In this document: piece by piece, positions 2 through 15,063 of the stretch
How positions within the stretch are numbered: position 1 is the first letter of the stretch
How the letters are laid out: every line of letters begins with the position of its first letter
Assembly (NCBI GenBank): GCA_003660975.1
Contig: QMVG01000002.1
Location: 32,001-96,000 of the forward strand
DNA: 64,000 nt
Direction of reading: 5' to 3'
DNA from: Candidatus Micrarchaeota archaeon
GTDB lineage: Archaea; B1Sed10-29; B47-G15
The notes under the pieces: generated by a model
What the model was told of the DNA's origin: nothing
The model's input: only the letters and a program-made list of their open reading frames with translations
The model's database searches: none
Program-made: the position numbers and the translations under genes

Positions 2-295
2 GGCACAATAAGGAGAGTTACAGAACTTGCAGAGCTTACTGCTGTGTCCAATGAAGGCGACGTTCATTTACAAACGCTGTTTTCATGGGATCCTGTCTCA
101 GATAGTATAAATCATATGAAAATCAACTCACACTATCTCAAAGAGCTATCCAGATATGCGGGTATGTCTGTTGATGACATTGAGCTTGAAATAGAGAAAA
201 GGAAACAGGTTTTAGAAGAGCTTACATCCAAAGGGATTAGAGACCTTAAAACTGTGTCTACATATCTAAACCGTTTTGAGGTAAGTAATAAATGA
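2..295 (+). CDS. Type IV pilus/secretion ATPase (VirB11/TadA/ArlI-like), C-terminal part; 5' end lies outside the window
   Basis: Frame is open from base 2 (GTIRRVTELAEL...LFSWDPVSDS...EIEKRKQVLEEL..GI), typical of archaeal VirB11-type ATPase C-termini; its stop overlaps the TadB/C-like gene. Confidence 0.85.
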   Translation, partial: GTIRRVTELAELTAVSNEGDVHLQTLFSWDPVSDSINHMKINSHYLKELSRYAGMSVDDIELEIEKRKQVLEELTSKGIRDLKTVSTYLNRFEVSNK

Positions 296-1404
296 CAGAA
301 ATAAAGAAACTAAAAAAAATTTTGGAAGCCGAGGATAGGAAAGAGAAAGAGCAGTCGCCATACCTGAACAGACAGTTGCTTTCTAAGATAATAAAGAGGA
401 TGGAAAAAAAATATGAAAAGGAGGGACTTAGCACCCCTGATTATGCTGCAAGAGAAAAAAAAGCAGAAAAGCTTAAAGTAATCACAGGCTCTCCAAAGGA
501 ATTGCTCTTGTCAAAAAAGCCAATAGTAAGGTTTCTAATTAGCATATATATGTTATCTTCTCCAATCAGTTATTACCTTCTAACATTTCTTGAGAAAATT
601 TTAGGCAAGAGCTTGGAAAAAGACCTTAAAGCTTCTGGCATGATGTATTCCCAGAAGCAATACCTTGCATTGACTATGTCGCTTGTGTTTATCCTGTGGG
701 TTTCATTTTTAATCCCTCTGACAGCACTGACGCTGCTCTTTCATTTTTCTCTATTCTACCTGCTTCTTTCAGCCATTTTAATCCCTTTGCTTGCTTTTTC
801 AATTGCATTTTTACTACCAAGCACAAGGGCCAGCAAAATAGCAAATGAGATTGACAAGGAGCTTCCATTTGCATTGAGACATATGAGCATACAAATACGG
901 GCTGGAGTTGGAATATACAATTCCATGGAGTCAATAGCTGTGTCTGATTATGGCTATTTGTCAAAAGGTTTCAAATTCGTTCTCAGCAATATCCAAAAAG
1001 GCATGCCAACTGAAGAAGCTTTAGAGTCGTGGGCATATATGACACGGTCAGAAGCCCTTCAAAGGGTTATAAGCCACATAGTTAGAGCTCTAAGAACAGG
1101 CGGCAATCTCTCTGATATTATGCTAAGCATTTCAGAGGACATATCATTTGAAAGAAGAATGAAAATATCTGACTTTGCCGAGAAACTCAACCTCATGGCT
1201 CTTTTTTTGATGATGGTGGCCATAGTAGTACCTGTTATGGTAGGCATACTGACTGCCATTGCATCAATGCCCTCTCTTAGCTCTTATGTAAATGTCTTTT
1301 CTATATTCTCACTAACTTTTCTGCAGTTGCTGTATTTTCTGATAAGCCCAAGCCTTATATTGCTCTTCCTTTACTTCATAAAGATCTCAGATCCAGGTGC
1401 TTGA
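292..1404 (+). CDS. Type IV pilus platform membrane protein (T2SSF/TadB-TadC family)
   Basis: IDKELPFALRHMSIQIRAG, ALRTGGNLSDIM, several TM helices; follows the ATPase. Confidence 0.9.
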   Translation: MTEIKKLKKILEAEDRKEKEQSPYLNRQLLSKIIKRMEKKYEKEGLSTPDYAAREKKAEKLKVITGSPKELLLSKKPIVRFLISIYMLSSPISYYLLTFLEKILGKSLEKDLKASGMMYSQKQYLALTMSLVFILWVSFLIPLTALTLLFHFSLFYLLLSAILIPLLAFSIAFLLPSTRASKIANEIDKELPFALRHMSIQIRAGVGIYNSMESIAVSDYGYLSKGFKFVLSNIQKGMPTEEALESWAYMTRSEALQRVISHIVRALRTGGNLSDIMLSISEDISFERRMKISDFAEKLNLMALFLMMVAIVVPVMVGILTAIASMPSLSSYVNVFSIFSLTFLQLLYFLISPSLILLFLYFIKISDPGA

Positions 1405-2259
1405 ATGAAGGCATTAGAAAAGTATCAAGAAATAGCCCATTTCGCAGGGATTTCACAGCCCTGGCTTTTGTTGGGAGGAAGTATTTCAATAGGCGCAATA
1501 CTGTTTTTCCTTTTGTTGTCCTATGACCCAATACTCTCAGTGCTTGTATTACTTATCTCCTTAGATGTATCTTTCGGCCTGCCTTTTTTGCTCGCAAGTA
1601 GGAAGGTTGAGAAGATTGAAGACAGCTTGCCAGATGTATTGCAGCACATAAGCACCACACTGAAAGCAGGCTCCACAATAGAGATGGCTCTAAAGGAGGT
1701 CTCCTTAGTTGACTATGGCCCAATAAGCCAAGAGATGAAACGGATGCTGGACGAAATAAACAAAGGCAAGACATTTGAAGAGGCCTTCAACGACTTTGCT
1801 GAAAGTTCTCACTCAAAACTTGTTAAGAAGATTGCAATCATAATCTCAGCCGCAAGGCGAAGCGGTGGGGCTCTATTACAGACTTTGAGCCTCACAGCAG
1901 AGGATATAAGAGCTGTTAACCGCTTGAGACGGGAGAGAAAAAGCAAAACACTTATGCAGTTCTTGTTTTTGATAGCAGCAAGCTCTATCGTAGCTCCTTT
2001 TATATTTGGCATAGTGCGGGCTGTTCTGTCAACACTTCTTTCAATAAGCCCTTTTACCAACACAGATACATTGCAAGCCTTTGATTTTACATTTAAGCTA
2101 TTTCTGGTATTGCAAGGTACTCTTACAACTATTGGAGCTGTTATGGTGAAAGAAGGCAAATTAGAAAAAAGTGCGCTTTACATCCCATTTTCTCTCTTCT
2201 CTATTTACGTGATATACAGCCTCGTGTCTGTCCTCTTTATGTCTTTAATAGGTGTTTGA
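1405..2259 (+). CDS. Second pilus platform membrane protein (T2SSF/TadC family)
   Basis: IEDSLPDVLQHISTTLKAG, YGPISQEM, RSGGAL motifs; TM segments. Confidence 0.9.
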   Translation: MKALEKYQEIAHFAGISQPWLLLGGSISIGAILFFLLLSYDPILSVLVLLISLDVSFGLPFLLASRKVEKIEDSLPDVLQHISTTLKAGSTIEMALKEVSLVDYGPISQEMKRMLDEINKGKTFEEAFNDFAESSHSKLVKKIAIIISAARRSGGALLQTLSLTAEDIRAVNRLRRERKSKTLMQFLFLIAASSIVAPFIFGIVRAVLSTLLSISPFTNTDTLQAFDFTFKLFLVLQGTLTTIGAVMVKEGKLEKSALYIPFSLFSIYVIYSLVSVLFMSLIGV

Positions 2260-2260
2260 T

Positions 2261-2566
2261 ATGAAAGCCCAAACTGCTATGGAATACCTAGTCCTGACAG
2301 CTGTTGTGTTGACCATTGTAACTGTTGTAAGTTATATGATACTTACGGCATCAAAAGCAAGTGGTCAGACAGCCTCAGAGATGACCTGCAGGGCAACAGC
2401 CTCCTCATATAAGTTAGCTATAATGGCAGACCCAAATGCCTGCGATGCAGAATGCGAAAAGGCCTGCGAAAAAGCCTGCGTGGACAGCAATGGCTATGAT
2501 GTAATTGGAGGCGAAAAAGGTTGCGGAACAGGTTGTCAGGCTTGCAAAAGCGGGACATTGCATTAA
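2261..2566 (+). CDS. Pilin-like protein with class III signal peptide and Cys-rich C-terminus
   Basis: MKA/QTAMEYL plus hydrophobic helix; 8 Cys in the mature part; GGTG SD-like motif upstream. Confidence 0.85.
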   Translation: MKAQTAMEYLVLTAVVLTIVTVVSYMILTASKASGQTASEMTCRATASSYKLAIMADPNACDAECEKACEKACVDSNGYDVIGGEKGCGTGCQACKSGTLH

Positions 2567-2568
2567 TC

Positions 2569-2596
2569 TTTTTATAGAACAATGCTCTTATGTTCT
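2569..2596 (+). promoter_or_regulatory. Putative internal TATA box followed by inverted repeat AGAACA-N9-TGTTCT
   Basis: TTTTTATA at 2569-2576; inverted repeat arms 2576-2581 and 2591-2596; GGTG at 2599-2602 before ATG 2608. Confidence 0.4.
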
Positions 2597-2607
2597 CTGG
2601 TGTTATC

Positions 2608-2916
2608 ATGAAGGCACAGGGCTCACTTGAATACCTAATCATATTAGCAGCTGTATTGGCAATAGGAGCTATAGTGGTTTTGTTTGTGACAGATGCTTTT
2701 AGCCAGACAAAAACAGCTGCGAGCGTTGAGAATTGTAGAAATGCACTTACAAAAGTATATCAAGAATACAAACTTCACGGGTCTGTTGCCAAAGACATTT
2801 CGGACAGCTGCTATGAAATCTGCAAGGATTTCGTTTATGCATCCTCACCAGCAACAGACTTTTGTGATGGGGAAGGTTTGACAGAAGACATAATAAACCA
2901 CATAAGCCAATCCTAA
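2608..2916 (+). CDS. Type IV pilin (class III signal peptide, Epd-like); candidate major pilin
   Basis: MKA/QGSLEYLIILAAVLAIG, canonical +1 Q and +5 E; 4 Cys. Confidence 0.88.
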   Translation: MKAQGSLEYLIILAAVLAIGAIVVLFVTDAFSQTKTAASVENCRNALTKVYQEYKLHGSVAKDISDSCYEICKDFVYASSPATDFCDGEGLTEDIINHISQS

Positions 2917-2948
2917 TCGTTAAATATTCTTTTTGATACTATTCTCCT

Positions 2949-3899
2949 ATGTATGCTTTTCTAGCATTTGCACTGTTGCTTACAGCAAGCTATTTTGACT
3001 TAAAGGATAGGAGAATACCTCCCACGCTAAGCTACTCATTCATCTTGATTGGACTCACAGCCCACCTATTAGAAGGAATATCTCTCCAATATATCTATAT
3101 CGTGTTTGCCTCTTTTTTCTTTGCCTACGCACTTTATAAGTTTGGGGTGTGGGCAGGGGGAGACTTCAAACTATTCGTGGCGCTTTCCCTCCTACTGCCC
3201 ACATACAAATCTATTGACTTCTTTTCATTTTATGTGCTGTTTTTTGCTGTGCTTGCCGTTCTGCCTTTTCTACTTGTATTTTTTGCGTACAAGCTTTTTC
3301 TTTCGAAAGAGTTCAGGAGAGGGGCGAAGGCAAAAGCTAAATCATGGCTAAAGCGTTCACTTTTTATCGCTATAATCGCTACAGCCTCTTATGAACTTTC
3401 ATCATTTTTCACATTGCCTCCTGAGTTATCTGTGCTCTTCTTTTTCATGCTTTTCTTGCTTAAGCAAAGTGGCTCTTTCATTGCTGTAGTTTTTCTATTA
3501 AACAGCATAATCAGAAATCCATCATATGTCTTAACAGTCATTTACTTGTTTTTAGTTTCCCTGCTTATTTCCATAGCTATCTACTCATTTAAGGTTTTGA
3601 GAAAAACTGTTCTCAGAAAAAAGCTGCCCATAGCCAAGATAAAGGAAGGCATGATACCTGCCCAGCACTTAATAAAGAAGGGAAAGAGGTATTATCTAAA
3701 AGAAGCAGAATGGCGCGACTTATTCCATAAAGATAATATCGTGATAGACTCTATGAAGGCCAGAGGGCTGAACAGGGATGAAATCCTATTGATTAAGAAA
3801 TCAGGCATAAAAGAAATAGAAATAAAGAAGTCACTTCCTTTTGTCCCCTTCATGTGCCTGGGATTTGTTCTAGCTCTCCTTAGTTTATTTATATTTTGA
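2949..3899 (+). CDS. eppA: Prepilin peptidase, A24 family, EppA-type with extra TM insert
   Basis: YFDLKDRRIP (Asp 1), WAGGDFKL (Asp 2), C-terminal LPFVPF; extra central TM block; lies inside the pilin operon. Confidence 0.88.
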   Translation: MYAFLAFALLLTASYFDLKDRRIPPTLSYSFILIGLTAHLLEGISLQYIYIVFASFFFAYALYKFGVWAGGDFKLFVALSLLLPTYKSIDFFSFYVLFFAVLAVLPFLLVFFAYKLFLSKEFRRGAKAKAKSWLKRSLFIAIIATASYELSSFFTLPPELSVLFFFMLFLLKQSGSFIAVVFLLNSIIRNPSYVLTVIYLFLVSLLISIAIYSFKVLRKTVLRKKLPIAKIKEGMIPAQHLIKKGKRYYLKEAEWRDLFHKDNIVIDSMKARGLNRDEILLIKKSGIKEIEIKKSLPFVPFMCLGFVLALLSLFIF

Positions 3900-3914
3900 C
3901 TGCCTTATTCTATC

Positions 3915-4082
3915 ATGGATGACAGGGCCCAGGTAAGCACGGAGTATCTAATAATACTCGCAGTGTCTTTGGTTCTAGCAGCAGTTGTGACTCTTTTAAC
4001 AGTGAACCTCTTTAGCGTGAAGTCATCCGTGAAGGAATTGATAGAAATATACTACAAACGCGCCTTGCAACTGGTGACTTAA
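3915..4082 (+). CDS. 55-aa mini-pilin (not in ORF track)
   Basis: Hand translation MDDRA/QVSTEYLIILAVSLVLAAVVTLLTVNLFSVKSSVKELIEIYYKRALQLVT; fills an operon gap. Confidence 0.85.
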   Translation: MDDRAQVSTEYLIILAVSLVLAAVVTLLTVNLFSVKSSVKELIEIYYKRALQLVT

Positions 4083-4250
4083 ATGGATGATTGCGCACAG
4101 GTTTCAATAGAATATATGTTCACAGCAGCTATTTTTCTTATAATTGCAGCCATTCTATCTGTTTACGTAGAGAGGATATTTGCAATGAAAGACACGATTT
4201 TCAAGACAAACAGCATATATTCAAAATCACTCTCAAACCTATTAAAGTGA
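4083..4250 (+). CDS. 55-aa mini-pilin (not in ORF track)
   Basis: Hand translation MDDCA/QVSIEYMFTAAIFLIIAAILSVYVERIFAMKDTIFKTNSIYSKSLSNLLK; abuts the previous stop codon. Confidence 0.82.
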   Translation: MDDCAQVSIEYMFTAAIFLIIAAILSVYVERIFAMKDTIFKTNSIYSKSLSNLLK

Positions 4251-4254
4251 TATT

Positions 4255-4635
4255 ATGAAAGCTCAGCTGACATTGGAATACCTTATTATTTTTGTAATCT
4301 TACTGCTACTGTTTTCAAATGTTTCTATGGATTTAATGGGTTCTTCAATGAGCTCTGCCCTGCAGATACAGAAGCAACAGATAATGAAAGCAGCCAATCT
4401 CTCTTTAGAGTCAGCTGCATCCAAGCTTCAGTATCAGGGAGAAGGGGCCAGGATATTAGTAAAGATAAGAGCAGCACCTGATTGCAATTACATATTTGAG
4501 GAGAAAAGAGCATACGCTGAATGCAGGAGCGGAACTTATGATATAGGTCCAAATCCTTTACCAGCTGATTTGGTGTACTCTGAAAAGACAATAAAGGAGA
4601 ATGAGTTGGATGTTGTTGAAATTAGTAAAGAGTAA
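4255..4635 (+). CDS. Minor pilin-like protein, class III signal peptide
   Basis: MKA/QLTLEYLIIFVILLLLF. Confidence 0.85.
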   Translation: MKAQLTLEYLIIFVILLLLFSNVSMDLMGSSMSSALQIQKQQIMKAANLSLESAASKLQYQGEGARILVKIRAAPDCNYIFEEKRAYAECRSGTYDIGPNPLPADLVYSEKTIKENELDVVEISKE

Positions 4636-4957
4636 GGGACAGCTTTCAATTGAACTTTTGTTTATCATTTCAATACTGATTCTCCTATGCTCATCCATAA
4701 CACTGGACGCATTGGCCACTTCATCACGAATGTTTGACATATCACACGTTAAAGACGCTGTAAATACTTATCTTTACAAAAAAGGCATTGAAGACAAAGC
4801 ATGCCTTTCAATGAGGCTTTCTGCGTTGTCAGTAAAGCAAAATACAGTTTACGTCAGGATAGATGGAGACAAAAGCTGCAAGCCTAGCTCTGATGAACTG
4901 CTTTATTTAATAAAAAAAGAAAACCCTTCTTTTGCGCTTTCCGTGGAGGTGATTTAA
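4610..4957 (+). CDS. Minor pilin-like protein, class III signal peptide
   Basis: KSKG/QLSIELLFIISILILL; alternative start at 4601. Confidence 0.8.
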   Translation: MLLKLVKSKGQLSIELLFIISILILLCSSITLDALATSSRMFDISHVKDAVNTYLYKKGIEDKACLSMRLSALSVKQNTVYVRIDGDKSCKPSSDELLYLIKKENPSFALSVEVI

Positions 4958-5494
4958 TTGGAATGGACTAAAACTAATGTTATTATACTGCTTCAGTCAG
5001 CAGTCCTATTCGCTGTCATTCTCGCAGTAGTTGCGAGTTTTTTGTCAGAACCATTTTTACTGCTTCTGGACATGGTTAGCTTGATTATGCTTGGTTATGG
5101 CCTTTGCTTAGTATATAAAAATTGGAGAAAGGAGTTCAAAACATATGCATTGCTTTTCAGTGTTCTCTTTTTTATAACAGTAGCTTTCCCAATTTTGATA
5201 ATATCCAAATTTATAAACAGTTTCAATACCTCTTTATTACTTCTCTTTTTGCTGCTTTTCTATTTTATCTTGAAGGCTTATTTGACACCAAAGCAGCTGG
5301 AAGGTATAGTAGTAATGGCAGACAAAGAGAGAGCAGTGGTGCATATAGATTACAATATCCTTTTGTCATTACCTGCAGGGGATTATGTTGTCAGAAATAA
5401 TGGAGCCAAGAAGGGACATAAAGTTCTGCTGTCTTATAAAAAGAGCATATTCAGGACTGTAAAGCCAGAAGCCGTGATCAAGGTGATAAAATGA
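4958..5494 (+). CDS. Pilus-locus membrane protein (DUF2101-like)
   Basis: About 4 TM helices plus a C-terminal beta domain (EGIVV...YNILLSLPAGDYVV...KKGHKV...PEAVI); operon position. Confidence 0.65.
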   Translation: MEWTKTNVIILLQSAVLFAVILAVVASFLSEPFLLLLDMVSLIMLGYGLCLVYKNWRKEFKTYALLFSVLFFITVAFPILIISKFINSFNTSLLLLFLLLFYFILKAYLTPKQLEGIVVMADKERAVVHIDYNILLSLPAGDYVVRNNGAKKGHKVLLSYKKSIFRTVKPEAVIKVIK

Positions 5495-5865
5495 AGAAGG
5501 GCATGTTTAGCATAGATTTTATTATGGCCCTTGTGATAGTTAGCTTTGTAGTTTTCTTTATACAAGAGCATACATATAGGAGTTTGAGACACAGCGAAGA
5601 GTTTGGAAGATTGGAGCAGCTCTCAAGCATGACATCTTCTGTTGCATCTCAGCTAAATGCTTTTTATGCCCTATCACCAGAAAAGGGAGACTTCTTTAAT
5701 TTATTACCCCCTAAAATAAGCAGTTTCAGCAGAACCCAGGATTGCACTGTCTTGAAATACGCTTCGTCTCTGACACTTAGTTGTGGAGATTCTTCCCTCT
5801 CCTTTCCACTTTGTTTTGACGATGCATCTTACGAGGTTGGTGAAAAGGCGGTTGAGAAGGTATGA
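5491..5865 (+). CDS. Minor pilin-like protein (Asp-type class III signal)
   Basis: MKKG/MFSIDFIMALVIV. Confidence 0.78.
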   Translation: MKKGMFSIDFIMALVIVSFVVFFIQEHTYRSLRHSEEFGRLEQLSSMTSSVASQLNAFYALSPEKGDFFNLLPPKISSFSRTQDCTVLKYASSLTLSCGDSSLSFPLCFDDASYEVGEKAVEKV

Positions 5866-6263
5866 AAGCACAGATATTTTCATTGGACGCCATGCTTGCC
5901 ATTGTAGCTCTTACAGTTATCGTGGGCTATTTTTCGTGGTCCCTTGAGAATACATTACATAGCGCAGATATTTCGGAGTATGAGAGCTTGCAGCGTATGG
6001 CAGATGATTGGGCACAGCTGGCTGTTAAAAGAATCTTGGCGCAAAGAGACGAACCAAATAAGGTAGACAGCTCAAGGCTTAGTGATCTTGCAGCGCAGAT
6101 GTCAGAACTGCTTGTTTCACCATATGACTTTGAGCTGCATCTTGGCAATTCTAAGCTGGGTGGGGACTGCAGTTCAAAGCAAAATGTGGTTTCTGTCAGG
6201 CGATTGGTTTATGACAAGGACTCAGCAGAAGGGAAAGTATTTGAATTGAGGTTATGTGTATGA
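5862..6263 (+). CDS. Minor pilin-like protein (Asp-type class III signal)
   Basis: MKA/QIFSLDAMLAIVAL. Confidence 0.8.
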   Translation: MKAQIFSLDAMLAIVALTVIVGYFSWSLENTLHSADISEYESLQRMADDWAQLAVKRILAQRDEPNKVDSSRLSDLAAQMSELLVSPYDFELHLGNSKLGGDCSSKQNVVSVRRLVYDKDSAEGKVFELRLCV

Positions 6264-6559
6264 AAGGCTTGCTCTTTAGCGTTGATTCGGTGTTGGCATT
6301 GTTGCTGTTGTTTGTAATTAGCTCAACATATCTTGTTATGCTGGAAGTGCAGGAAAAAAACAAAGACAACGTTTTGATGCTTAGCAGGTTGGCAAGAGAC
6401 ATAATAGACATAAGGTATTACCAGCCTTCATATTCGCCGCCAGACTGGCTAAAAGAGGAAAACTGCCAGCACAATGTGGTTTCTCTGGACTATTTTGTTT
6501 ACGATAGCAGCTCTAATAAGGTAATTAAAAAAACTCAAAAGGTGTGCTTCAATGAATAG
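6260..6559 (+). CDS. Minor pilin-like protein (Asp-type class III signal)
   Basis: MKG/LLFSVDSVLALLLL; ATGA overlap with the previous gene. Confidence 0.78.
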   Translation: MKGLLFSVDSVLALLLLFVISSTYLVMLEVQEKNKDNVLMLSRLARDIIDIRYYQPSYSPPDWLKEENCQHNVVSLDYFVYDSSSNKVIKKTQKVCFNE

Positions 6560-7031
6560 GGCCTTCGTTATCTCCTCATCTGTCTTCATTCTGCTGTTAG
6601 CCAGCTTATTTCTCATAAACTTTATTATGCTGACCTCTACATACCAGTCATCTGCTGATGAAAGGAAGCTGATGCTGGATTCCCTTTACAATGTTTTAAC
6701 AGATGCAAAGCGCCTCTTATTCTACGCAGGAGAGAATGTGCTTGATGATGCTGTGGCGGACCATATAGGACACTGCCCTAAAGACGCGATTCTTGAGGCA
6801 TGGGTAGATAACGCATTGCAAAACAGCATTGCAGAAATGAACAGCTTTTTGAGAGATAAAAACATAAGGCTTAGCTTATCCTATGACGGGCCCTTTGTCA
6901 GTAAAACTGGGCTGTGCTCTTATAAGGTGAGCTTAACAAATGTTAAAATTACTGCTGTTAAGCAGATGGGAGACATAACAGAAGCAAAGCTCAGCCACAG
7001 TTTGCCAGACATAAACAGGAATTATCCTTGA
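6552..7031 (+). CDS. Pilin-like protein with degenerate class III signal
   Basis: MNRA/FVISSSVFILLL; single N-terminal hydrophobic helix; last gene of the overlapping run. Confidence 0.62.
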   Translation: MNRAFVISSSVFILLLASLFLINFIMLTSTYQSSADERKLMLDSLYNVLTDAKRLLFYAGENVLDDAVADHIGHCPKDAILEAWVDNALQNSIAEMNSFLRDKNIRLSLSYDGPFVSKTGLCSYKVSLTNVKITAVKQMGDITEAKLSHSLPDINRNYP

Positions 7032-7085: not shown

Positions 7086-7418
7086 ATGCGGCTTTTAACA
7101 GGCGTTTATATGCTGACTGCATTGTTTTCCTTATCTCTTATCTACTTTTTCTCACCCCAGCTTTCATACAAGGCAGTTAGTGCTGAGGAGCTTTACAGCA
7201 ACTGTGAAGGCAGCGTGCAGGCAACTGTTCTTCTTCAAGATGTCTTCATATCAAAAAATGGAAACCGAATAGGTATCGTGTCAGATAGCCCTCGCACTTT
7301 TGTGCTGCTCAATGATATTTACGCCACAAAAGGGGACCGCTTGCTGTTGAAAGCCAGAGCCTCTCGCTTTAGAAAGGCCTGTTGGCTTTTTCCTGAAAAG
7401 GTGAAATGGCTTGATTGA
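7086..7418 (+). CDS. Membrane-anchored OB-fold-like protein
   Basis: N-terminal TM, then beta-rich domain ending KGDRLLLKARASRFRKACWLFPEKVK, resembling the OB-fold GDxVxVxGxVxxYxG pattern. Confidence 0.55.
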   Translation: MRLLTGVYMLTALFSLSLIYFFSPQLSYKAVSAEELYSNCEGSVQATVLLQDVFISKNGNRIGIVSDSPRTFVLLNDIYATKGDRLLLKARASRFRKACWLFPEKVKWLD

Positions 7419-8547
7419 CTTTGCTTTTTTCTTTCTCGGCATTTTTATTGGGATTTTAGTTGGCTTCATTCCAGGACTCCATGTGAATAGCATTCTGCCT
7501 TTTCTTTTTCTCACTTCAGGGTATCAAATGCACTGCCTTGTTATCCCTATGTCTGTTGCCTTTGTCTTTTCATCCTTCTTTCCAGCAGCACTTCTTGGGC
7601 TGCCTGACGAAGACAACGCATTATCTGTTTTGCCTGCTCACAGGTTGTTAGCAAGGGGAAAGGCATACACTGCGTTTAGGCTCTATTTTTTAGGCGCTCT
7701 GACCTCGTCTTTCTTTTCATTCATCTTTCTGGTTTTCTTTTTGATATTTCTGAAGGACTTCTATCAAGCGCTAAAGCCCATTATTCCTCTCATTTTGCTT
7801 TTCATACTTGTTGTTATGCTATTTTCTAACAAATACGCTTTCATAGTCATAGTGCTGTCTTCTGCACTAGGATATATGACAGTTAATTACAACACAATCC
7901 TTCCACTGCTTACAGGTTTCTTTGCAATGAGCAACCTTATCCTCTCACTGTTTTCCACGGGCAGACAGCCAACGCAAAGGCTGAAAAGTGAAATCTCAAT
8001 AAGCAGGTTTGACATAATTCATAGCTCTCTTGTGGCTTCTGTTCTGGCCTCTTTCTTCTCCCTTATTCCGGCAATTTCTTCTGGCATATCTGCTACTGCT
8101 TCCAAGATTTTCGGGCGTTTCAATACAGAAGAGTTTCTAGTATTGATAGGCTCTACAAATATGGCATATATGGTTTTTTCATTTTTTACACTGTCTTTGC
8201 TGGGCATAAGCAGAAGCGGTTCTGCTGTTTTATTATCAAACGTAGAGAATGTTAGCGCTTTTTTTATGGCTGCTTTGGTACTCCTCTCCTCTTTGCTAAG
8301 TTTTCTGATATTGGAGTCCGTTTACAAAAGACTGCTGCCTTTGTACACAAAGCTTAAACAGAAAAGCATAAACATTGCAGCGGCGTTTGTACTACTTCTT
8401 ATAGTCTTTTTAACTTCTTCTTACTTCGGCCTTCTCGTTTTCTTGGCATCTACCAGCATAGGCCTGCTCTCTAATGAATTAGGAGTGAAACGAATAAATT
8501 GCATGTCTGCCCTAATTTTTCCAACGGTGCTGTTGATATGGCAGTGA
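7411..8547 (+). CDS. Archaeal TctA-like membrane protein (DUF112/COG1784)
   Basis: GFIPGLHVN, ALLGLPDEDNALSVLPAHRLLARGK, RSG motifs; many TM helices. Confidence 0.85.
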   Translation: MIDFAFFFLGIFIGILVGFIPGLHVNSILPFLFLTSGYQMHCLVIPMSVAFVFSSFFPAALLGLPDEDNALSVLPAHRLLARGKAYTAFRLYFLGALTSSFFSFIFLVFFLIFLKDFYQALKPIIPLILLFILVVMLFSNKYAFIVIVLSSALGYMTVNYNTILPLLTGFFAMSNLILSLFSTGRQPTQRLKSEISISRFDIIHSSLVASVLASFFSLIPAISSGISATASKIFGRFNTEEFLVLIGSTNMAYMVFSFFTLSLLGISRSGSAVLLSNVENVSAFFMAALVLLSSLLSFLILESVYKRLLPLYTKLKQKSINIAAAFVLLLIVFLTSSYFGLLVFLASTSIGLLSNELGVKRINCMSALIFPTVLLIWQ

Positions 8548-8897
8548 AAATAAAGAGAGAAGTGATTGGAAACTTATTGGAGCTATGCAGGGCTGCCTAT
8601 CCCAACGAGGTAGGCGGTATGCTCCTAGGGAAGGAGATAATAGATGATTTTGTTTTAACACCAAGTGAATATGGACCCTCTTCAATAATAACGAGAATGC
8701 AGGACATGCCAATATACACTAACATCGCAGGCAGTTTTCATTCCCATCCAACAGGAGACAATAGGCCATCCAGGGCAGATTTAAACTTTTTCTCCAAGAC
8801 AGGCAAATACCACCTTATAATTGCGTATCCATATACTTTAAATAAGGTGGCAGCTTATGATGTTAAGGGCAGAGCTGAAGAATTGGTGATAATATGA
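8538..8897 (+). CDS. JAMM/MPN+ metalloprotease
   Basis: YPNE...GSFHSHPTGDNRPSRADL fits the E-HxH-x7-S-x2-D motif. Confidence 0.9.
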   Translation: MAVKIKREVIGNLLELCRAAYPNEVGGMLLGKEIIDDFVLTPSEYGPSSIITRMQDMPIYTNIAGSFHSHPTGDNRPSRADLNFFSKTGKYHLIIAYPYTLNKVAAYDVKGRAEELVII

Positions 8898-10075
8898 AGC
8901 AGATAATATATCTTCTCTTGGACGGTCTCGGTGATTATTCTTATGCAGAGTTAGGCATAAAAACACCCTTAGAATATGCTAACACTCCCTTCTTTGACTC
9001 TCTTGCCTCAGGAGGAAAAGAGGGGCTTATAGTACCAACAGGTCTTGGAAGGGAAATCTTGATGGAAAACGCCTCTCTCATGCTTTTCAGCGATCTTGGT
9101 TATGACTTGAGGACCTTTCCTCATGCAAGAGGCATTATTGAGGCTGTTGGCCATGGCTTTGATGTTAAAGATGGTGAGCTGTGGGCAAGAACTAATTTTG
9201 CTACTGTTGATGAGAATTGGGTATTGATAGACCTTAGGGCAGGTAGAATCTCCCAGACAGAGGAACTGGTAAAGGCAGTGAACGAAATCCAAATGGATGT
9301 GGAGTTTCATTTCTATGGCACTCAGGTATATAGGGGCCTCCTTGTTTTTAGGGATGACAAAGCGCTGTCTGATGAAATAACAGGCGTTGACCCGCACATG
9401 CCCGGGAAGAAAGTAATGATGGCAAAGGCTTTGAAGCCAGAAGCAAAGCGCTCAGCTGAACTGATAAATGATTTTATGAAAAAGGCTTATGAGGTGTTAA
9501 AGCAGCATCCAATTAACATTGAACGAAGAGAGATGGGCTTGCCTGAAGCCAACTTTATTCTGCCAAGGGGAATTGGTTCAAAACTTCCCCACTTACAGCC
9601 TTTTGAGGAAAGGCATAACTTAAAGGCGGTCTCAATTACTGGCATAAATGTCAATAAGGGCATATCTAAGTTATTGGGGATACCTATATGGGAAGTGCCT
9701 GAAGAAATAGGAGAAAAGGAATATGAAGTTAAAAGAGAGCCTATTCTAAAAGCCATTGACCAAGGCTATGATTTTATATCAGTACATGTGAAGCCAACAG
9801 ATGACGCTGGTCACGATGGCGATGTGCATAAAAAGGTTAGGGAGATTGAAAGGGCAGACGCTTTCTTCTCTTCCTTAGAGCTTGATGATGTGCTGTGGGC
9901 GATATACGCAGACCACTGCACTCCTTGTTTCATAAAGGCACATTCTAATGACCTAATACCCTCTTTGATATCTTCTAAAAAAGCATCTGGGAGGCAGTTT
10001 GCCGAGAAATATTGTACTGATTATACAGTTCAAGCATACGATTTTATCAAACTCGCTTTAAAGGAAGCGCGTTAG
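8894..10075 (+). CDS. apgM: Cofactor-independent phosphoglycerate mutase family (archaeal ApgM-like)
   Basis: DGLGD, KTPLEYANTP, RAGRI, HVKPTDDAGHDG, ADHCTP, HSND metal-ligand motifs. Confidence 0.85.
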   Translation: MKQIIYLLLDGLGDYSYAELGIKTPLEYANTPFFDSLASGGKEGLIVPTGLGREILMENASLMLFSDLGYDLRTFPHARGIIEAVGHGFDVKDGELWARTNFATVDENWVLIDLRAGRISQTEELVKAVNEIQMDVEFHFYGTQVYRGLLVFRDDKALSDEITGVDPHMPGKKVMMAKALKPEAKRSAELINDFMKKAYEVLKQHPINIERREMGLPEANFILPRGIGSKLPHLQPFEERHNLKAVSITGINVNKGISKLLGIPIWEVPEEIGEKEYEVKREPILKAIDQGYDFISVHVKPTDDAGHDGDVHKKVREIERADAFFSSLELDDVLWAIYADHCTPCFIKAHSNDLIPSLISSKKASGRQFAEKYCTDYTVQAYDFIKLALKEAR

Positions 10076-11826
10076 ACTGAGTAATAATATCTACCTGATT
10101 TTCTTTGTTCTATATCCTTCTGGGAGCCTTTTTTGTTTATCCTTGGCCTGCCAGTGCTCGGGTCTCTTCTGAATGTAATCTCCATCATCTTGAGGAAGTC
10201 ATTCATGCCTTCTTCCATTGCTTTTGCTCTTTTCGCTCTTCCGTATCGCCCAGGCTTTCCCTCAAAATTTATAATCCTGTTTGAAACAGCATCTATGAAG
10301 ATTATGTCATGGTCTATAACCATCGTCGCTTCTTCCTTCTTTTCACTTACCCTTTTTATCAGCTCTGCCAATCTCAGGCGTTGCTCTATATCTAGGAAGG
10401 CGCTAGGCTCGTCTAATAGACAAAGGTCTGCGCGCTTAGCCAGCGTTAAGGTTATTGCCAACCTTTGCAGTTCGCCTCCAGACAGGTTTTCCAATTCCTT
10501 CTCCATTAAATCTTCAACAGTGTTCCTCATCAAACTGTTGAACAGCTCCATGTCAATATCTTGATTTCTTATAAAGTCCATAACCTTCACGTGTCCGCTC
10601 GCTTTCACATACTGAGGCTTATACGCTATCCTTAATTTTAACCCTGGCTCTCCCTCTGTAGTTTTTTCAATGCCAGCAAGCACTTTAAAGAAGGTTGACT
10701 TTCCAATTGCATTAGGTCCTAATATGCCTATGCACTCTCCTCTTTTGATTTCGCCCCCTTCTACCTCCAAAGTAAAACCAGGATAATCTTTCCTAAAAGC
10801 ACCATATTCAAACATCTCTTTATTTTTCCACTCCTCCGCAGGAGGCCTTGGAGGGAAGCTAATGCTGTAATCCCTTATCCTTATGTTCTCTGCCTTCAAA
10901 AAGCCGTCCAAGAACTCGTTTATGCCTGCCCTTGATGTTTTTAATCCAGAAACAACACCATACACTCCAGGTTCACCAAACAGTATATGCACATAGTCTG
11001 TCAAATAGTCAAGTATTGCCAGATCATGTTCAACAATAAATACTGTTTTGTCTTCGCCTAACCTCCTTAAAAGCTTCGCGACCTTTATTCTTTGTCTTAC
11101 ATCTAGATAAGAGCTTGGCTCATCAAAAAAGTAATAATCGGCCTCCTTCATCATAGTAATCGCTATAGCCAGCCTCTGTAGTTCTCCACCACTGAGCTCT
11201 GAGACCTTTCTTTTCCTCGCCTCTTCCAACTCAAACAACGATATGTACTCATCTAAGACTCCTTTTTCATCTGCAACTTTTAAGACATCCCCCACAACTT
11301 TGTCTCTCCTGCCCTCAAAAAAGGCATCTATATCCTGTGGCTTGTAAGATAACTTAGCTTTTTTCTCACTTAGCGCTTTCAAGTAACCATGAATCTCATG
11401 GCCTTTTAGCTCTGCCAGAATCTCGTCCCATGAAGGAGCATTGTCATGGTGGCCTAAATTTGGTTTTATTTCTCCTGCCAGTATCCTCACAAGCGTGCTC
11501 TTTCCAATACTGTTTCTACCTACGATCCCTATGACAGCCTTTTTCGGTGAAGGCAGATTATACAACCTAAAGCTATTCTTTCCGTATTGGTGGATTATCT
11601 GTCCCAGCTCTTCTGCTGTGTTTATTATCTTTATAGCTTTGTAGGGGCATTTCTTAGGACATATGCCACAGCCAGTGCATAACAGTTCATTTATTATTGG
11701 GTATCCATCCTCCCCCTGCACTATGGTTTCATCGCCCATTCTTACGCCAGGACATACAGAAATACAAATATAGCCACATTTCTTCGGAGAACATTTTTCC
11801 CTGTCAATCACAGCAATCCTGACCAT
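10072..11826 (-). CDS. rli1: Ribosome recycling ATPase ABCE1/Rli1
   Basis: N-terminal Fe-S domain (CTGCGICPKKCP), two ABC domains (LSGGELQR), C-terminal ITFRRDP..GRPRINK. Confidence 0.97.
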   Translation of the reverse strand: MVRIAVIDREKCSPKKCGYICISVCPGVRMGDETIVQGEDGYPIINELLCTGCGICPKKCPYKAIKIINTAEELGQIIHQYGKNSFRLYNLPSPKKAVIGIVGRNSIGKSTLVRILAGEIKPNLGHHDNAPSWDEILAELKGHEIHGYLKALSEKKAKLSYKPQDIDAFFEGRRDKVVGDVLKVADEKGVLDEYISLFELEEARKRKVSELSGGELQRLAIAITMMKEADYYFFDEPSSYLDVRQRIKVAKLLRRLGEDKTVFIVEHDLAILDYLTDYVHILFGEPGVYGVVSGLKTSRAGINEFLDGFLKAENIRIRDYSISFPPRPPAEEWKNKEMFEYGAFRKDYPGFTLEVEGGEIKRGECIGILGPNAIGKSTFFKVLAGIEKTTEGEPGLKLRIAYKPQYVKASGHVKVMDFIRNQDIDMELFNSLMRNTVEDLMEKELENLSGGELQRLAITLTLAKRADLCLLDEPSAFLDIEQRLRLAELIKRVSEKKEEATMVIDHDIIFIDAVSNRIINFEGKPGRYGRAKRAKAMEEGMNDFLKMMEITFRRDPSTGRPRINKKGSQKDIEQRKSGRYYYSV

Positions 11827-11877
11827 AGTACCACATAGATAACATTAAGCAAAAACAGAAAAAGAGAGAAAATTGGA

Positions 11878-12078
11878 TTAAAGCACGAGCAACATTATGC
11901 CTATCAATATCATAATTACTGCCAGAATTAATATACCGCCCTCAATTGCCGTTACTACGGCGTTTATAAGTCCCTCCAGTGTCCATACACCGTTGCTCAT
12001 GAAGCCGAAGTGGAGCATTGCCACTAACAATATTAAGCCAACAACAAGCGAAGCCACGCCGAACTTGTCCACCTTCAT
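11878..12078 (-). CDS. Small two-TM membrane protein
   Basis: MKVDKFGVASLVVG...; GGTGGTGA SD upstream; fills the gap between rli1 and pelota. Confidence 0.7.
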   Translation of the reverse strand: MKVDKFGVASLVVGLILLVAMLHFGFMSNGVWTLEGLINAVVTAIEGGILILAVIMILIGIMLLVL

Positions 12079-12139
12079 TGTTTTCACCACCTTTTTATAG
12101 AGAGAACTATATTTAAAAACGTTTTCATATAATAAAGCC

Positions 12140-13165
12140 ATGCTCATACTGTACAGGAAGGATAATCAGATTAAACTTAGGGTTCAAAGCTTGGAAGACC
12201 TCTGGCATTTGGAAAAGATAATCAGAAAGGGGGACAGGGTCTCCTCCCTTACTACAAGAAAATTCGTTGCAGATTCAGGAAGCCAGGAGAGAAAGAAGCT
12301 TTTTATCAAGATAGCAGTAGAGAAGCTCAGCTTTCACAGAGACATGTCAAAGCTGCGTATTTTGGGAAGCATAGTTGAAGCACGCCCAGAGGAGTTAGCC
12401 CAAATAGGGCAGCACCACAGTATTGATATTGGTGTTGGCGATGAGCTAACAGTAGAAAAGGACAGATGGACCAATTACGAGCTTGCAAGATTGAGGGAAG
12501 CTGAAAAACATGGCAAAAGAGAAAAGTTATCCGTGCTAACGATAGATGACTCATCAGCGCAACTTTTCCACATCTTAGGTTATGGCTTAAAAGAAGCTGG
12601 GGAAGTTCATGCTAGAGGGCTGCGAAAATACAGGCAGGTTTCGGATAAGGCGAGGCAAGATTACTACAACGATATCTATCAGCTGATTTCCTCTGTTGAT
12701 AAGTTAATAATAACTGGCCCTGGCTTTGAGAAAGACAGATTCAGGAAGTATCTAGAAGAAAAAGGAAAGGCAACAAAAATTATGTTCGAGAAAAGCAGTT
12801 CTACTGGCAAATCAGCTGTTGCTGAGCTGATAAACAAGGGAGTCATAGACAAAATTATGCGTGATTCCAGGCTGGTAAAAGAAAATAAGGCGGTTGAAGA
12901 GTTTGTTTCTTCGTTGGCCAAGGGCAGAGCAATATACGGGGAGAAAGAAGTTATAAATGCCTTAAAGTCAGGAGCTGTTGCGAAATTGCTTATTCTTGAT
13001 GAGCTACTTTTTACTCACAGGGAAAAGATAGATATGCTGTCTGAATTAGCTTCCAGAACAGGGACTGAACTGCTGTTTATAAGCCGTGAGAACGAGGCAT
13101 CGGAGAAAGTGAAGGCATTTGGCGGAATTGTCGGGATTTTGCGCTTTTCCCTAAGTAAATCATAA
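12140..13165 (+). CDS. pelA: mRNA surveillance protein Pelota
   Basis: SLEDLWHL, LRILGSI, IGQHHSI, TGPGFEK, AIYG, FGGIVGILRF. Confidence 0.95.
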   Translation: MLILYRKDNQIKLRVQSLEDLWHLEKIIRKGDRVSSLTTRKFVADSGSQERKKLFIKIAVEKLSFHRDMSKLRILGSIVEARPEELAQIGQHHSIDIGVGDELTVEKDRWTNYELARLREAEKHGKREKLSVLTIDDSSAQLFHILGYGLKEAGEVHARGLRKYRQVSDKARQDYYNDIYQLISSVDKLIITGPGFEKDRFRKYLEEKGKATKIMFEKSSSTGKSAVAELINKGVIDKIMRDSRLVKENKAVEEFVSSLAKGRAIYGEKEVINALKSGAVAKLLILDELLFTHREKIDMLSELASRTGTELLFISRENEASEKVKAFGGIVGILRFSLSKS

Positions 13166-13188: not shown

Positions 13189-15063
13189 ATGGTTGTTATG
13201 AAAAAGAAAGCCTTGTTGATTCTTTTGATTTTTAGCCCAGTTGTAAACGCCATCGCGCTTAATATAGTCCCACAAGTGTTAAACAATACCATAGGCAATG
13301 TTTCTTTGGTTTTCTTCAACGATGAGAATATCAGCATATCGCAGTTATACTTCAATTCAAGTGACATAGCGATATCATCAGTGTCCGAAGACAATTGTTT
13401 GCTTTCAACATTTTCATTTAACTGTGATATTGATGTAAAGCCGTCTTCCCAACATTCTCTTTCTTTCACTTACATGGCGAATGCAGGCCAACACAATGCG
13501 AGCATAACCCTTGAAGACCTGTCTTCAAGGCGATTTGTTTTTAATAAATCCATAGTCGTTGACTTGGATAGACCAATTATGGCCAAGGTAGAAGTTGAAT
13601 ATCCCCCTGGCTACTTGGCTGCAAAAACAGGAACAGTTGTTATATTAAAAGCTTTCGTGGTTGATGCGACGAGTTATGTAAAAAAGGTAGTGGTTGATGC
13701 CGCTCCCATAGGCTGCGGCGAGCTTCAGTTGAGCAAGGGAGTTAGTTATTGGTCAGGCATTTGTAAGGTGGAGGCTAAGGATGGGGTTAAAATTCTGAAA
13801 GCAATTGCTTACGATGCCGCAGGAAATAAAGAAGAAAAGAACTTTCAAGTGATAATAGACAACAGTCCTTCAAAGATAAACTTAATTCACTTCAAGCAAG
13901 CTTCACGGATAGGCGAGACAGTTACATTTACATTTAATTTAAGCGAGAAGGGCACAAGCATTAAAGATGTTGTGATTGACATGTCTGAGCTGGGCTGCCC
14001 TGTCAAGCACCTTGAAGCAAGCGATGCTGTCTATTCCAGTTCATGCACTGTGGTTTCAGGAGAAGGCCATTATAATATTAGCATAGATGCTTATGATTAC
14101 GCCGGCAATGTGGAGAGAAAGCTTATAGATTTCTTCGTTGACAATCATCCTCCACAAATAAATAGTGTAGAGCTTAAGTATACAGGAAAGCAAAAGGCTG
14201 CAAAACAAGGAGACACTATTCACATCTTAGTTAACGCCAATGATTCTCTAAGTGGTGTTTCAAAGGTAATTCTACAGCAAAACAGCGTTTGTAGTGCTAA
14301 CTTCTCATATGAAAAAGGAGTGTGGGAAGGGCTTTGCACAGTTGAGGAAAAAAAGAGTGGCAATTACAAAATCATGCTTTTGGCTTATGACCAAGCAGGC
14401 AATGTCGTTAATGAGAGTATCAATATATCAATAGACAATGACGTTCCAGAAAGCCTTGAAATAGAGATGTTCAATAGCACACATCCCATTAACAATTTGA
14501 AGAACGGAGACATACTGTCCTTTGTTATCTCTGCTTATGACAGTCAGTCAGGCATTCAGTCAGTAAGGGTTTATGGTCAGGGAACTGGTTGCGATGCTAC
14601 TTTAAACTATGCTAACGGCTATTGGAGCGGCTTCTGCAAGGTTCACAGGGCTTCTATGGGGCCTGCCTCCATTGCAATTATAGCATATGATTACGCCAAT
14701 AACAGCATTTCACACAGCATTGACATCAACATAAATGACAGCTTCTGCGACAAAATCTGTGACATTGGATACAGATTAAACTACAGCACCTGCACTTGTG
14801 AAAAAATGGCATGTAACAAGATATGCCCTCGCGGCTTCAATCTTAACAGGGAGTCATGCACCTGCGAGGCTCCAAAGGTTTGCAATAAAAAATGCAAAGA
14901 AGGGGAAAAATTGAACACTCAAGATTGCGTTTGCGAAAAAGTTAAGGCAGAGGAAACAGATTATACATGGGTTTTGTATCTGGGGGTCATAGTTGTTTTG
15001 CTTGTTCCATTAACCTTTGCGTTGAACTCAAAAATGATAAATTCCTTGAAAAAATACGACTAA
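13189..15063 (+). CDS. Cell-surface protein: signal peptide, four Ig-like repeats, three Cys-rich repeats, C-terminal TM anchor
   Basis: Repeats end AYDAAGN, AYDYAGN, AYDQAGN, AYDYANN; C-x3-C-x2-G-x2-LN-x3-CxC occurs three times; many NxS/T sequons. Confidence 0.8.
   Translation: MVVMKKKALLILLIFSPVVNAIALNIVPQVLNNTIGNVSLVFFNDENISISQLYFNSSDIAISSVSEDNCLLSTFSFNCDIDVKPSSQHSLSFTYMANAGQHNASITLEDLSSRRFVFNKSIVVDLDRPIMAKVEVEYPPGYLAAKTGTVVILKAFVVDATSYVKKVVVDAAPIGCGELQLSKGVSYWSGICKVEAKDGVKILKAIAYDAAGNKEEKNFQVIIDNSPSKINLIHFKQASRIGETVTFTFNLSEKGTSIKDVVIDMSELGCPVKHLEASDAVYSSSCTVVSGEGHYNISIDAYDYAGNVERKLIDFFVDNHPPQINSVELKYTGKQKAAKQGDTIHILVNANDSLSGVSKVILQQNSVCSANFSYEKGVWEGLCTVEEKKSGNYKIMLLAYDQAGNVVNESINISIDNDVPESLEIEMFNSTHPINNLKNGDILSFVISAYDSQSGIQSVRVYGQGTGCDATLNYANGYWSGFCKVHRASMGPASIAIIAYDYANNSISHSIDININDSFCDKICDIGYRLNYSTCTCEKMACNKICPRGFNLNRESCTCEAPKVCNKKCKEGEKLNTQDCVCEKVKAEETDYTWVLYLGVIVVLLVPLTFALNSKMINSLKKYD

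Follow-up and report, generated by a model that had tools for sequence, protein, structure and literature searches.

An OB-fold/TctA-like gene pair at the tail of an Epd-like pilus operon in a small-genome archaeon: a candidate nucleic-acid importer

Archaea have no ComEC, which leaves the route of DNA across their membrane an open question, and the only candidates are an OB-fold protein and a TctA-like membrane protein that emerged from a transposon screen in Methanococcus. What, then, does it mean that a gene pair of the same kind closes a pilus operon in Candidatus Micrarchaeota archaeon (GenBank assembly GCA_003660975.1, contig QMVG01000002.1)? The locus lies in a 64-kb stretch of this contig (positions 32,001 to 96,000, hereafter the window), in a genome of 1.33 Mb in 130 contigs that is 89.66% complete. 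An earlier note on the window had described three overlapping genes on one strand right after the last pilin, and the coordinates in the list of open reading frames (ORFs) agreed: on the + strand, at positions 7086–8897, genes for an OB-fold protein, a TctA-like protein and a JAMM peptidase follow one another directly 3' of the last pilin-like gene.

On balance, we consider it likely that the OB-fold and TctA-like proteins are the version, in a small-genome archaeon, of the pair used for natural transformation in Methanococcus, placed at the tail of an Epd-like pilus operon, and that the operon probably encodes both a pilus and a nucleic-acid importer. That such a pair takes part in DNA uptake is already in print and is not a new idea. 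As far as our literature searches showed, the additions made here are the fusion with an Epd-like pilus operon across deep small-genome lineages and the naming of DUF2101, an AfJAMM-type peptidase and a replaceable mutase as partners; no paper was found that places the pair inside pilus operons or links it to JAMM.

The pair and its counterpart in Methanococcus

The 110-aa product of the first gene had no match in Pfam or NCBIfam, and a word-index homologue search returned only the protein itself. Homologues were gathered by their position upstream of TctA homologues and by tblastn, and were aligned in two sets, 13 sequences from the taxonomic order of the window and 11 more distant neighbours. 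Residues C40, G42, S93 and C99 were invariant in the first set. The two profiles aligned to each other with an hhalign probability of 97.25% (E 2.8e-11), and among the distant neighbours 9/11 matched PF01336 and 4/11 weakly matched Pfam DUF4131 (best E 0.0058), which we take to be the N-terminal OB domain of ComEC. An AlphaFold2 model based on the first alignment (predicted local distance difference test, pLDDT, 93.1) consisted of an N-terminal helix (residues 2–21) and a five-strand OB barrel (residues 42–108), and Foldseek matched it to OB folds of the nucleic-acid-binding type (HIN-200, RPA, Stn1/Ten1, LysRS anticodon-binding), with 71 matches at E ≤ 0.001. By profile comparison and structure prediction, the protein is thus a real OB fold, and its description in the earlier note as membrane-anchored and OB-fold-like was borne out. 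The basic and aromatic face claimed for it fared less well in its basic part: the quoted string is present (KARASRFRKACWLF, after the hydrophobic N-terminal helix), while 13 K+R and 9 D+E residues give the soluble part a net charge of only +4. Because the N-terminus is short and positively charged, the OB domain would face outward.

Beyond these alignments, a profile search of 1.84 billion representatives returned 3972 proteins at E ≤ 0.001, in which single helix-plus-OB proteins (~100–135 aa) were mixed with arrays of up to 12 modules. Whole-length structural neighbours in the ESM Atlas (112–133 aa; 121–133 aa for those from Methanobacteriota), named as OB-fold proteins, came from Woesearchaeota, Nanobdellota and Methanobacteriota and are taken as leads only.

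The second protein matched PF01970 with E 5.6e-36 (124.5 bits against a cut-off of 28.9), 361 of its residues aligning over 421 of the 423 model positions. It is of the arCOG04469/COG1784 type, showed about 10 hydrophobic stretches in a crude hydropathy window and was modelled by AlphaFold2 as all-helical (pLDDT 90.8, predicted template modelling score 0.89). The earlier note had seen no TctB or TctC partner in the window, which holds for the genome at large: TctC (PF03401) and TctB (PF07331) had no match each in the whole 89.66% complete genome, where control genomes gave matches, and the TctA-like gene is itself single. In a midpoint-rooted FastTree phylogeny of 37 TctA-like sequences (the partial L042 and L051 omitted; read without support values), the class of the window formed one clade; the five other JAMM-linked sequences fell outside it and were not grouped together. 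A genome of 1.9 Mb (G036; G036:C1:1575738-1577812 and L046:6892-8055) carried two TctA-like genes, one beside a gene for a 992-aa multi-OB protein and the other beside a gene for a 388-aa anchored protein that has no Pfam match and, at L046, stands in place of the OB ORF.

The function of such a pair is best approached through Methanococcus maripaludis JJ, in which a transposon screen for natural transformation yielded two adjacent genes, MMJJ_13020 (OB fold, one transmembrane helix) and MMJJ_13030 (TctA-like, 11 transmembrane helices) (Fonseca et al., 2023, PMC10133366). According to the main text of that paper, in-frame deletion of either gene abolished natural transformation and was complemented, deletion of the TctA-like gene in Methanoculleus thermophilus had the same effect, and the TctA-like protein was proposed to be the DNA transporter. 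The same paper, citing Fonseca 2020, gives Epd-type pili as needed for transformation. The window pair has the two-gene layout, the Pfam families and the absence of TctB and TctC in common with MMJJ_13020/13030. It differs in being the tail of a pilus operon, whereas by the coordinates in Table 1 of PMC10133366 the M. maripaludis pair is apart from the epd loci, and in being followed by JAMM and phosphoglycerate mutase (apgM) genes, whereas that table contains no JAMM or DUF2101 gene. In addition, the OB protein of the window has diverged so far that Pfam misses it and carries a cysteine pair that is invariant in, and specific to, its taxonomic order.

Two bacterial systems invite comparison. 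With TctABC, the tripartite tricarboxylate transporter of Salmonella and other bacteria, the window shares the PF01970 membrane protein, which here is 378 aa with about 10 hydrophobic stretches, lacks TctB and TctC and has an OB-fold protein as its partner. With ComEA/ComEC it would share a logic in which a pilus works together with a DNA receptor at the surface and a polytopic conduit in the membrane. Unlike in ComEC, the OB domain and the conduit are separate proteins and no metallo-beta-lactamase (MBL) nuclease domain is found in the locus; neither the ComEC competence family nor the MBL family was detected among the 21 operon proteins at Pfam E ≤ 0.1.

The reading of the pair as an importer builds on gene content, folds, conserved gene order and published genetics of a pair of the same family and layout, all of which are established. 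In the scheme that we propose, the pilus would catch extracellular DNA, possibly also RNA; the OB domain, tethered to the outside of the membrane through its single helix, would take over the nucleic acid; and the short TctA-like protein, without TctB and TctC partners, would move it or its fragments across the membrane, likely with DUF2101 as a third membrane partner. The AfJAMM-type peptidase and the phosphoglycerate mutase encoded downstream are given no role in this scheme. DNA binding, the direction and substrate of transport, the topology and any involvement of JAMM or the mutase are what we infer from the above. The roles of receptor and translocator suggested in the earlier note thus gain from the genetics of the same-family pair, while as functions they stay putative.

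The pilus operon and the conservation of its link to the pair

Pfam and NCBIfam scans together with the ORF list identified positions 2–7031 as an archaeal type IV pilus operon upstream of the OB gene (Table 1). The ATPase fragment at the window edge scored far under the cut-off of the FlaI model. The four small genes closest to the OB gene had no Pfam match above threshold and are called pilin-like by eye, from their N-termini only; their homologues hold the same position within the taxonomic order of the window (tblastn). With an ATPase, two platform genes, an A24 peptidase and class III pilins, the Epd-like gene set, or system 1 of the archaeal type IV filaments (T4F), is complete in one locus and has two platform genes, the ATPase, the dedicated A24 peptidase and short class III pilins in common with the Epd (EppA-dependent) type IV-like pilus of Methanococcus. 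T4F system 1 has been reported in methanogens and some Nanobdellati/DPANN in a 2026 survey of archaeal type IV filaments (PMC13705601), in the main text of which TctA and DUF2101 do not occur.

Table 1. Coordinates of the features discussed. Positions are those of the window unless a locus (L) or a contig (C) of the source genome (G000) is given.
Feature	Position	Strand	Remarks
Type IV pilus ATPase, C-terminal end	2-295	+	Truncated by window edge; resembles FlaI C-terminus, E 4.4e-10
Two T2SSF platform genes	292-1404, 1405-2259	+	PF00482, E 3e-19 and 6.7e-20
Six class III signal-peptide pilin genes around the peptidase gene	2252-4957	+	PF04021, two above cut-off, four weaker
Prepilin peptidase	2949-3899	+	Peptidase_A24 E 8.8e-12; Arc_PepC E 5e-06
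DUF2101 membrane protein	4958-5494	+	178 aa; PF09874, E 1.2e-4, 22.3 bits vs cut-off 22
Four overlapping small genes	5491-7031	+	124, 133, 101 and 159 aa; pilin-like hydrophobic N-termini
A/T-rich stretch TTAAAAAAATAA	7056-7068	+	18-30 nt 5' of OB start codon; read by eye
OB-fold protein	7086-7418	+	110 aa
TctA-like protein	7411-8547	+	378 aa; PF01970
AfJAMM-type JAMM/MPN+ zinc peptidase	8538-8897	+	119 aa from ATG 8538
apgM, cofactor-independent phosphoglycerate mutase	8894-10075	+	TIGR00306 E 3.7e-96, 322.6 bits vs cut-off 320; PF10143, PF01676
ABCE1 and Pelota	10072-13165	ABCE1 -	After apgM
Mutase genes outside the class	L058:10564-11256, L059:9593-11146, L061:15835-17400, L057:2789-3994, L060:2538-3812
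Glycos_transf_3 (AMP-phosphorylase-like)/IF-2B pair; RuBisCO gene elsewhere	C3:87884-90397 and C16:4143-5006		Outside window
ThiS-like protein	C67:851-1120 (L067)		2.6-kb contig, integrase-like ORFs adjoining

The coding regions overlap by 8 nt between the OB and TctA-like genes and by 10 nt between the TctA-like and JAMM genes. Since apgM in turn overlaps the JAMM gene by 4 nt and is translationally coupled to it, the coupled string comprises four genes, not three. For JAMM, the longest ORF starts at a TTG (8499–8897), and the gene most likely begins at the internal ATG, at which its homologues begin (M-x-I-K...). The A/T-rich stretch before the OB gene is a possible archaeal TATA-like internal promoter; a promoter and terminator scan found fewer sites than in shuffled sequences, using a bacterial consensus that is uninformative for archaea. 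Beyond ABCE1 and Pelota, the window encodes a predicted 624-aa surface protein (13189–15063; ORF list only). Its N-terminus is a signal-like helix, beta-rich modules are repeated along the chain, and the C-terminal part contains Cys-rich repeats and a membrane anchor.

Conservation was followed by tblastn of 21 window proteins against 30 fetched loci, covering about 8 kb on either side of TctA where the contig allowed. Within the taxonomic order of the window the arrangement is pilus operon, OB, TctA, JAMM, apgM, ABCE1 on the opposite strand and Pelota. Pilus genes stood directly upstream of the pair in 20 of the 23 loci of the order and class (exceptions L033, L034 and L047), and in four class loci, judged by eye, more pilin-like genes came after JAMM; several class-level loci showed DUF2101, OB, TctA and JAMM in a row before such genes. 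In 24/30 fetched loci the ORF immediately 5' of TctA, in the same orientation, was single-helix and OB-like; the helix-plus-OB ORF was missing in L035, L039, L040, L041 and L045. At L047 (9491-11959), from a genome of the window's order, the pilus genes before OB, TctA, JAMM and apgM are replaced by the gene of an 822-aa DUF2341/beta-helix/fn3 surface protein. A DUF2341 protein of the Methanococcus epd locus is also listed among the transformation-screen hits (Table 1 of PMC10133366).

A wider sample of 151 genomes, the window's own included, gave matches to the TctA-like profile in 123 genomes, to JAMM in 83, to the OB profile in 115, to T2SSF in 128 and to DUF2101 in 45 (a further 430 T2SSF matches lay beyond those listed). 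Counts are given without statistics because relatives are not independent. The OB profile largely followed TctA: among the 28 genomes without TctA it matched in only three, each time in part, and the G055 match adjoins DUF2101 where a contig begins. Outside the class, OB adjoined TctA in at least 24 of 96 genomes (hand count among the matches listed, 63 lying beyond the listing). In all 26 genomes of the order and class that had both, JAMM came immediately 3' of TctA in the same orientation, as it did in five of 49 outside the class, which belong to five families (G051, G074, G095, G116, G137).

In four of these other families, Pfam scans recovered the string from pilus to JAMM. G051 reads T2SSE (with an intein), T2SSF, T2SSF, pilins, A24, pilin, one gene (x), DUF2101, OB, TctA, JAMM and apgM; G116 has the same string ending in a bacterial-type iPGM (PF06415); G137 lacks the DUF2101 match and ends in a 231-aa His_Phos_1 protein; and in G095, where the string ends in apgM, an IS200 transposase and genes for sugar synthesis interrupt the pilus part. 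By the earlier note's own measure, a linkage to pili that was not conserved would have refuted its reading; the linkage proved conserved in the 20/23 class loci and in these four families. In the fifth, G074, the order is OB, TctA, JAMM, GNAT and iPGM, the pilus operon lying 6–11 kb off on the other strand. Three genomes of three families (G056, G141, G099; 1.5–2.2 Mb) have TctA one oppositely oriented methyltransferase gene away from a T2SSE–T2SSF pair and have no OB gene beside it. Conversely, nine TctA-positive genomes had no T2SSF match among the matches listed (G047, G052, G075, G090, G093, G108, G114, G124, G129), and three of the nine keep OB next to or near TctA; the pair is therefore not merely a pilus part. 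As side observations, the G095 insertion (L060:7791-14443), situated between A24 and DUF2101-OB-TctA, contains an IS200-like transposase, rhamnose-synthesis genes and a GT2 glycosyltransferase, and the T2SSE genes of two other lineages (L057:11413-14565, L061:4295-7402) carry an intein with LAGLIDADG and HTH domains.

The position of DUF2101 makes it likely to be a third membrane partner of the OB/TctA-like pair. Its gene is immediately 5' of the OB gene in class loci L031, L043, L044 and L051 and, in other families, in G051, G116 and G095. G031, among the seven genomes sampled first outside the class, has DUF2101, NUDIX, OB and TctA in a row, with a nucleoside diphosphate kinase gene adjoining and no pilus genes nearby.

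Peptidase, mutase and nucleotide metabolism

The third gene of the overlapping set does encode a JAMM protein, as the earlier note had it. It matched PF14464 (Prok-JAB, E 1.3e-13) and aligned over its full length (residues 2–118) with AfJAMM (AF2198 of Archaeoglobus fulgidus; 1oi0, 1r5x; E 4.7e-22). The zinc site E...HxH...S..D is intact, and E24, H68-S-H70, S78 and D81 were invariant in 19/19 TctA-linked homologues aligned. The protein has neither a signal sequence nor a membrane segment and is the product of the sole Prok-JAB gene in the genome; unlike that of AfJAMM, its gene is translationally coupled to a TctA-like gene. To our knowledge, AfJAMM has no assigned cellular function. The one observation that points to a DNA-related role for the window peptidase is its conserved position. 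The bacterial JAB-domain protein RadC is a member of competence regulons, which is an analogy and not evidence.

A second link between JAMM and the same gene set was found in the six genomes of genus g37, where some 1.4 kb separate JAMM from DUF2101 and TctA lies far off. The run in G043 (L065:4133-7190) comprises one gene (x), JAMM, an MBL-fold hydrolase, DUF2101 and DUF2100, and by coordinates G066, G087, G108, G129 and G150 of the genus have the same arrangement. ComEC carries an MBL nuclease domain, and the MBL gene in this run may be worth attention. DUF2100 also occurs about 700 nt downstream of TctA in L049.

Downstream of TctA and JAMM, a gene of the phosphoglycerate-mutase type was present in 5/5 loci outside the class, encoding apgM in two, iPGM in two and His_Phos_1 in one. 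This looks like in-place replacement of the mutase by analogous enzymes. Because the slot has been refilled from three unrelated enzyme families, the gene order appears to be under selection, of which this is an unusually clean sign.

The genome also offers a metabolic context for a mutase in this place. It encodes a RuBisCO large subunit (E 4.8e-95) and an IF-2B-family protein, ribose-1,5-bisphosphate-isomerase-like, whose gene adjoins a 529-aa Glycos_transf_3 ORF; SAICAR synthetase was not found in it and was found in 14/14 control genomes. AMP phosphorylase, ribose-1,5-bisphosphate isomerase and RuBisCO make up the archaeal route from AMP to 3-phosphoglycerate. This gene content suggests that nucleotides are salvaged and catabolized and that purines are not made de novo, and given the AMP-phosphorylase-like, IF-2B and RuBisCO genes and the failure to find SAICAR synthetase, imported nucleic acid may matter to the cell no less as food and a supply of nucleotides than for recombination.

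A bolder reading, which we regard as doubtful, would join pilus, DUF2101, OB, TctA-like, AfJAMM and mutase genes into one operon for the capture, import and catabolism of nucleic acids in host-dependent small-genome archaea. Extracellular or host DNA and RNA would be caught by the pilus, passed to the OB receptor and imported by a TctA-like/DUF2101 complex. The import would then be degraded via AMP phosphorylase, ribose-1,5-bisphosphate isomerase and RuBisCO to 3-phosphoglycerate, from which the mutase would feed lower glycolysis, and the AfJAMM-type protein would be a dedicated cytoplasmic processing or regulatory peptidase of the importer.

Alternative explanations and significance

A number of observations weigh against the pair being a nucleic-acid importer. 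DNA binding or transport by these proteins has not been demonstrated in any organism, and the likeness to MMJJ_13020/13030 is one of family, architecture and gene order only. The main text of PMC10133366 does not contain the word stems 'piliat' or 'microscopy' and does not mention piliation of the mutants, and lacking a piliation test it leaves room for an indirect effect on transformation through the pilus. In the genome of the window no SNase (thermonuclease) was found, and one is needed in Methanococcus. A PDB profile search returned no solved relative of the TctA-like protein, and Foldseek of its model against the PDB gave none at E ≤ 0.001 (best 0.045). The nearest solved folds are those of secondary carriers, and no obvious wide pore was resembled. 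VIA-align ranked the OPT-family transporter 7wsr at the top (233 residues aligned, root-mean-square deviation 4.5) with Z 11.8, which is under its safe level for helical bundles, as common helical arrangements can give such values; TRAP, DASS, ArsB and AbgT carriers came next at Z 5.5–6.1. The modelled fold is at most secondary-carrier-like and speaks neither for nor against passage of a polymer. Small carboxylates are the substrates for which the TctA family is known. Among the longer proteins searched there were no fusions of OB with TctA or of TctA with JAMM, which is weak evidence. As to gene order, outside the class OB does not adjoin TctA in up to 72 of 96 genomes, no pilus gene lay within 6 kb of TctA in any of the seven genomes sampled first, and JAMM is far from TctA in 44 of the 49 genomes with both; eight of the 151 genomes have JAMM and no TctA. 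Shared order is in itself weak evidence of shared function, since the block also carries ABCE1 and Pelota; throughout the class this ribosome-recycling pair keeps its place close to the module, a caution that some of the synteny reflects descent and not function. A ThiS-like (ThiS/MoaD-like) protein of 89 aa ending in GG is encoded in the genome, which leaves a general desampylase role open to JAMM. We had argued that the genome lacks such a system and that JAMM can therefore not be a desampylase, and dropped the argument once this protein was found.

These points lend themselves to three other explanations. That the pair is real and its neighbours are there by descent only, JAMM as a general desampylase-type peptidase and apgM as a housekeeping enzyme of glycolysis, both carried along in a well-expressed operon and uninvolved in uptake, seems unlikely to us. 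It would account for ABCE1 and Pelota in the conserved class block, for the many genomes in which JAMM is unlinked to TctA or occurs without it, and for JAMM being the sole Prok-JAB gene beside a ThiS-like GG protein in the genome. It sits poorly with the placement of JAMM directly after TctA in every class genome with both and in five genomes of five other families, with the separate link to DUF2101 in g37 and with a mutase slot refilled by unrelated families, which argues for selection on the arrangement. Furthermore, no ThiF-type E1 matched in the 89.66% complete genome, and the NCBIfam desampylase model NF041370 scored 30.5 bits against a cut-off of 130. We hold it quite unlikely that the pair, perhaps together with DUF2101 and JAMM, assists in making or operating the pilus, for instance by supplying or removing something for assembling, modifying or anchoring pilins, so that transformation would be lost only through failure of the pilus. 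Its place within or at the end of pilus operons, the pilin-like genes on both sides of it in some class loci and the adjoining peptidase, which could act on pilins, would fit such a function, as does the main text of PMC10133366, which reports no piliation test. Yet TctA persists in nine genomes without a platform match among the matches listed and has no pilus gene nearby in the seven genomes sampled first, the M. maripaludis pair is far from the epd loci (Table 1 coordinates, PMC10133366), and the OB fold is of the nucleic-acid-binding type; JAMM has no signal sequence or membrane segment, and the A24 peptidase already covers pilin processing.

A function of the TctA-like protein as an importer of small carboxylate-type molecules, with the OB protein replacing TctC as extracytoplasmic receptor, appears very improbable. 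It would agree with the PF01970 score, well over the cut-off, with the resemblance of the predicted fold to secondary carriers (at Z values that are weak for helical bundles), and with the suggestion that arCOG04469/COG1784 proteins, mostly stand-alone genes, 'could be carboxylate transporters' (Makarova et al., 2015, PMC5898192). The mutase-type gene after TctA and JAMM, both in the taxonomic order of the window and in 5/5 loci outside the class, would fit phosphoglycerate or glycerate as a substrate feeding the mutase, but it also fits nucleotide catabolism via RuBisCO to 3-phosphoglycerate. Fusion to a pilus operon is hard to explain for a metabolite carrier. Also against this function, the OB partner is of the nucleic-acid-binding type, TctB and TctC were not found in the genome, and genetic work in print connects a pair with this family and layout to the uptake of DNA.

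If the pair is, as we favour, the counterpart of the Methanococcus transformation proteins, its conservation with a pilus operon in several deep lineages of small-genome archaea lends independent support, from genomes, to joint action of pilus and pair. The operon also puts forward DUF2101 and the AfJAMM-type peptidase as further candidates. Many uncultured archaea of the DPANN type may accordingly be able to import nucleic acids, whether to exchange genes or to feed on them, which bears on how reduced archaeal cells live on their hosts.

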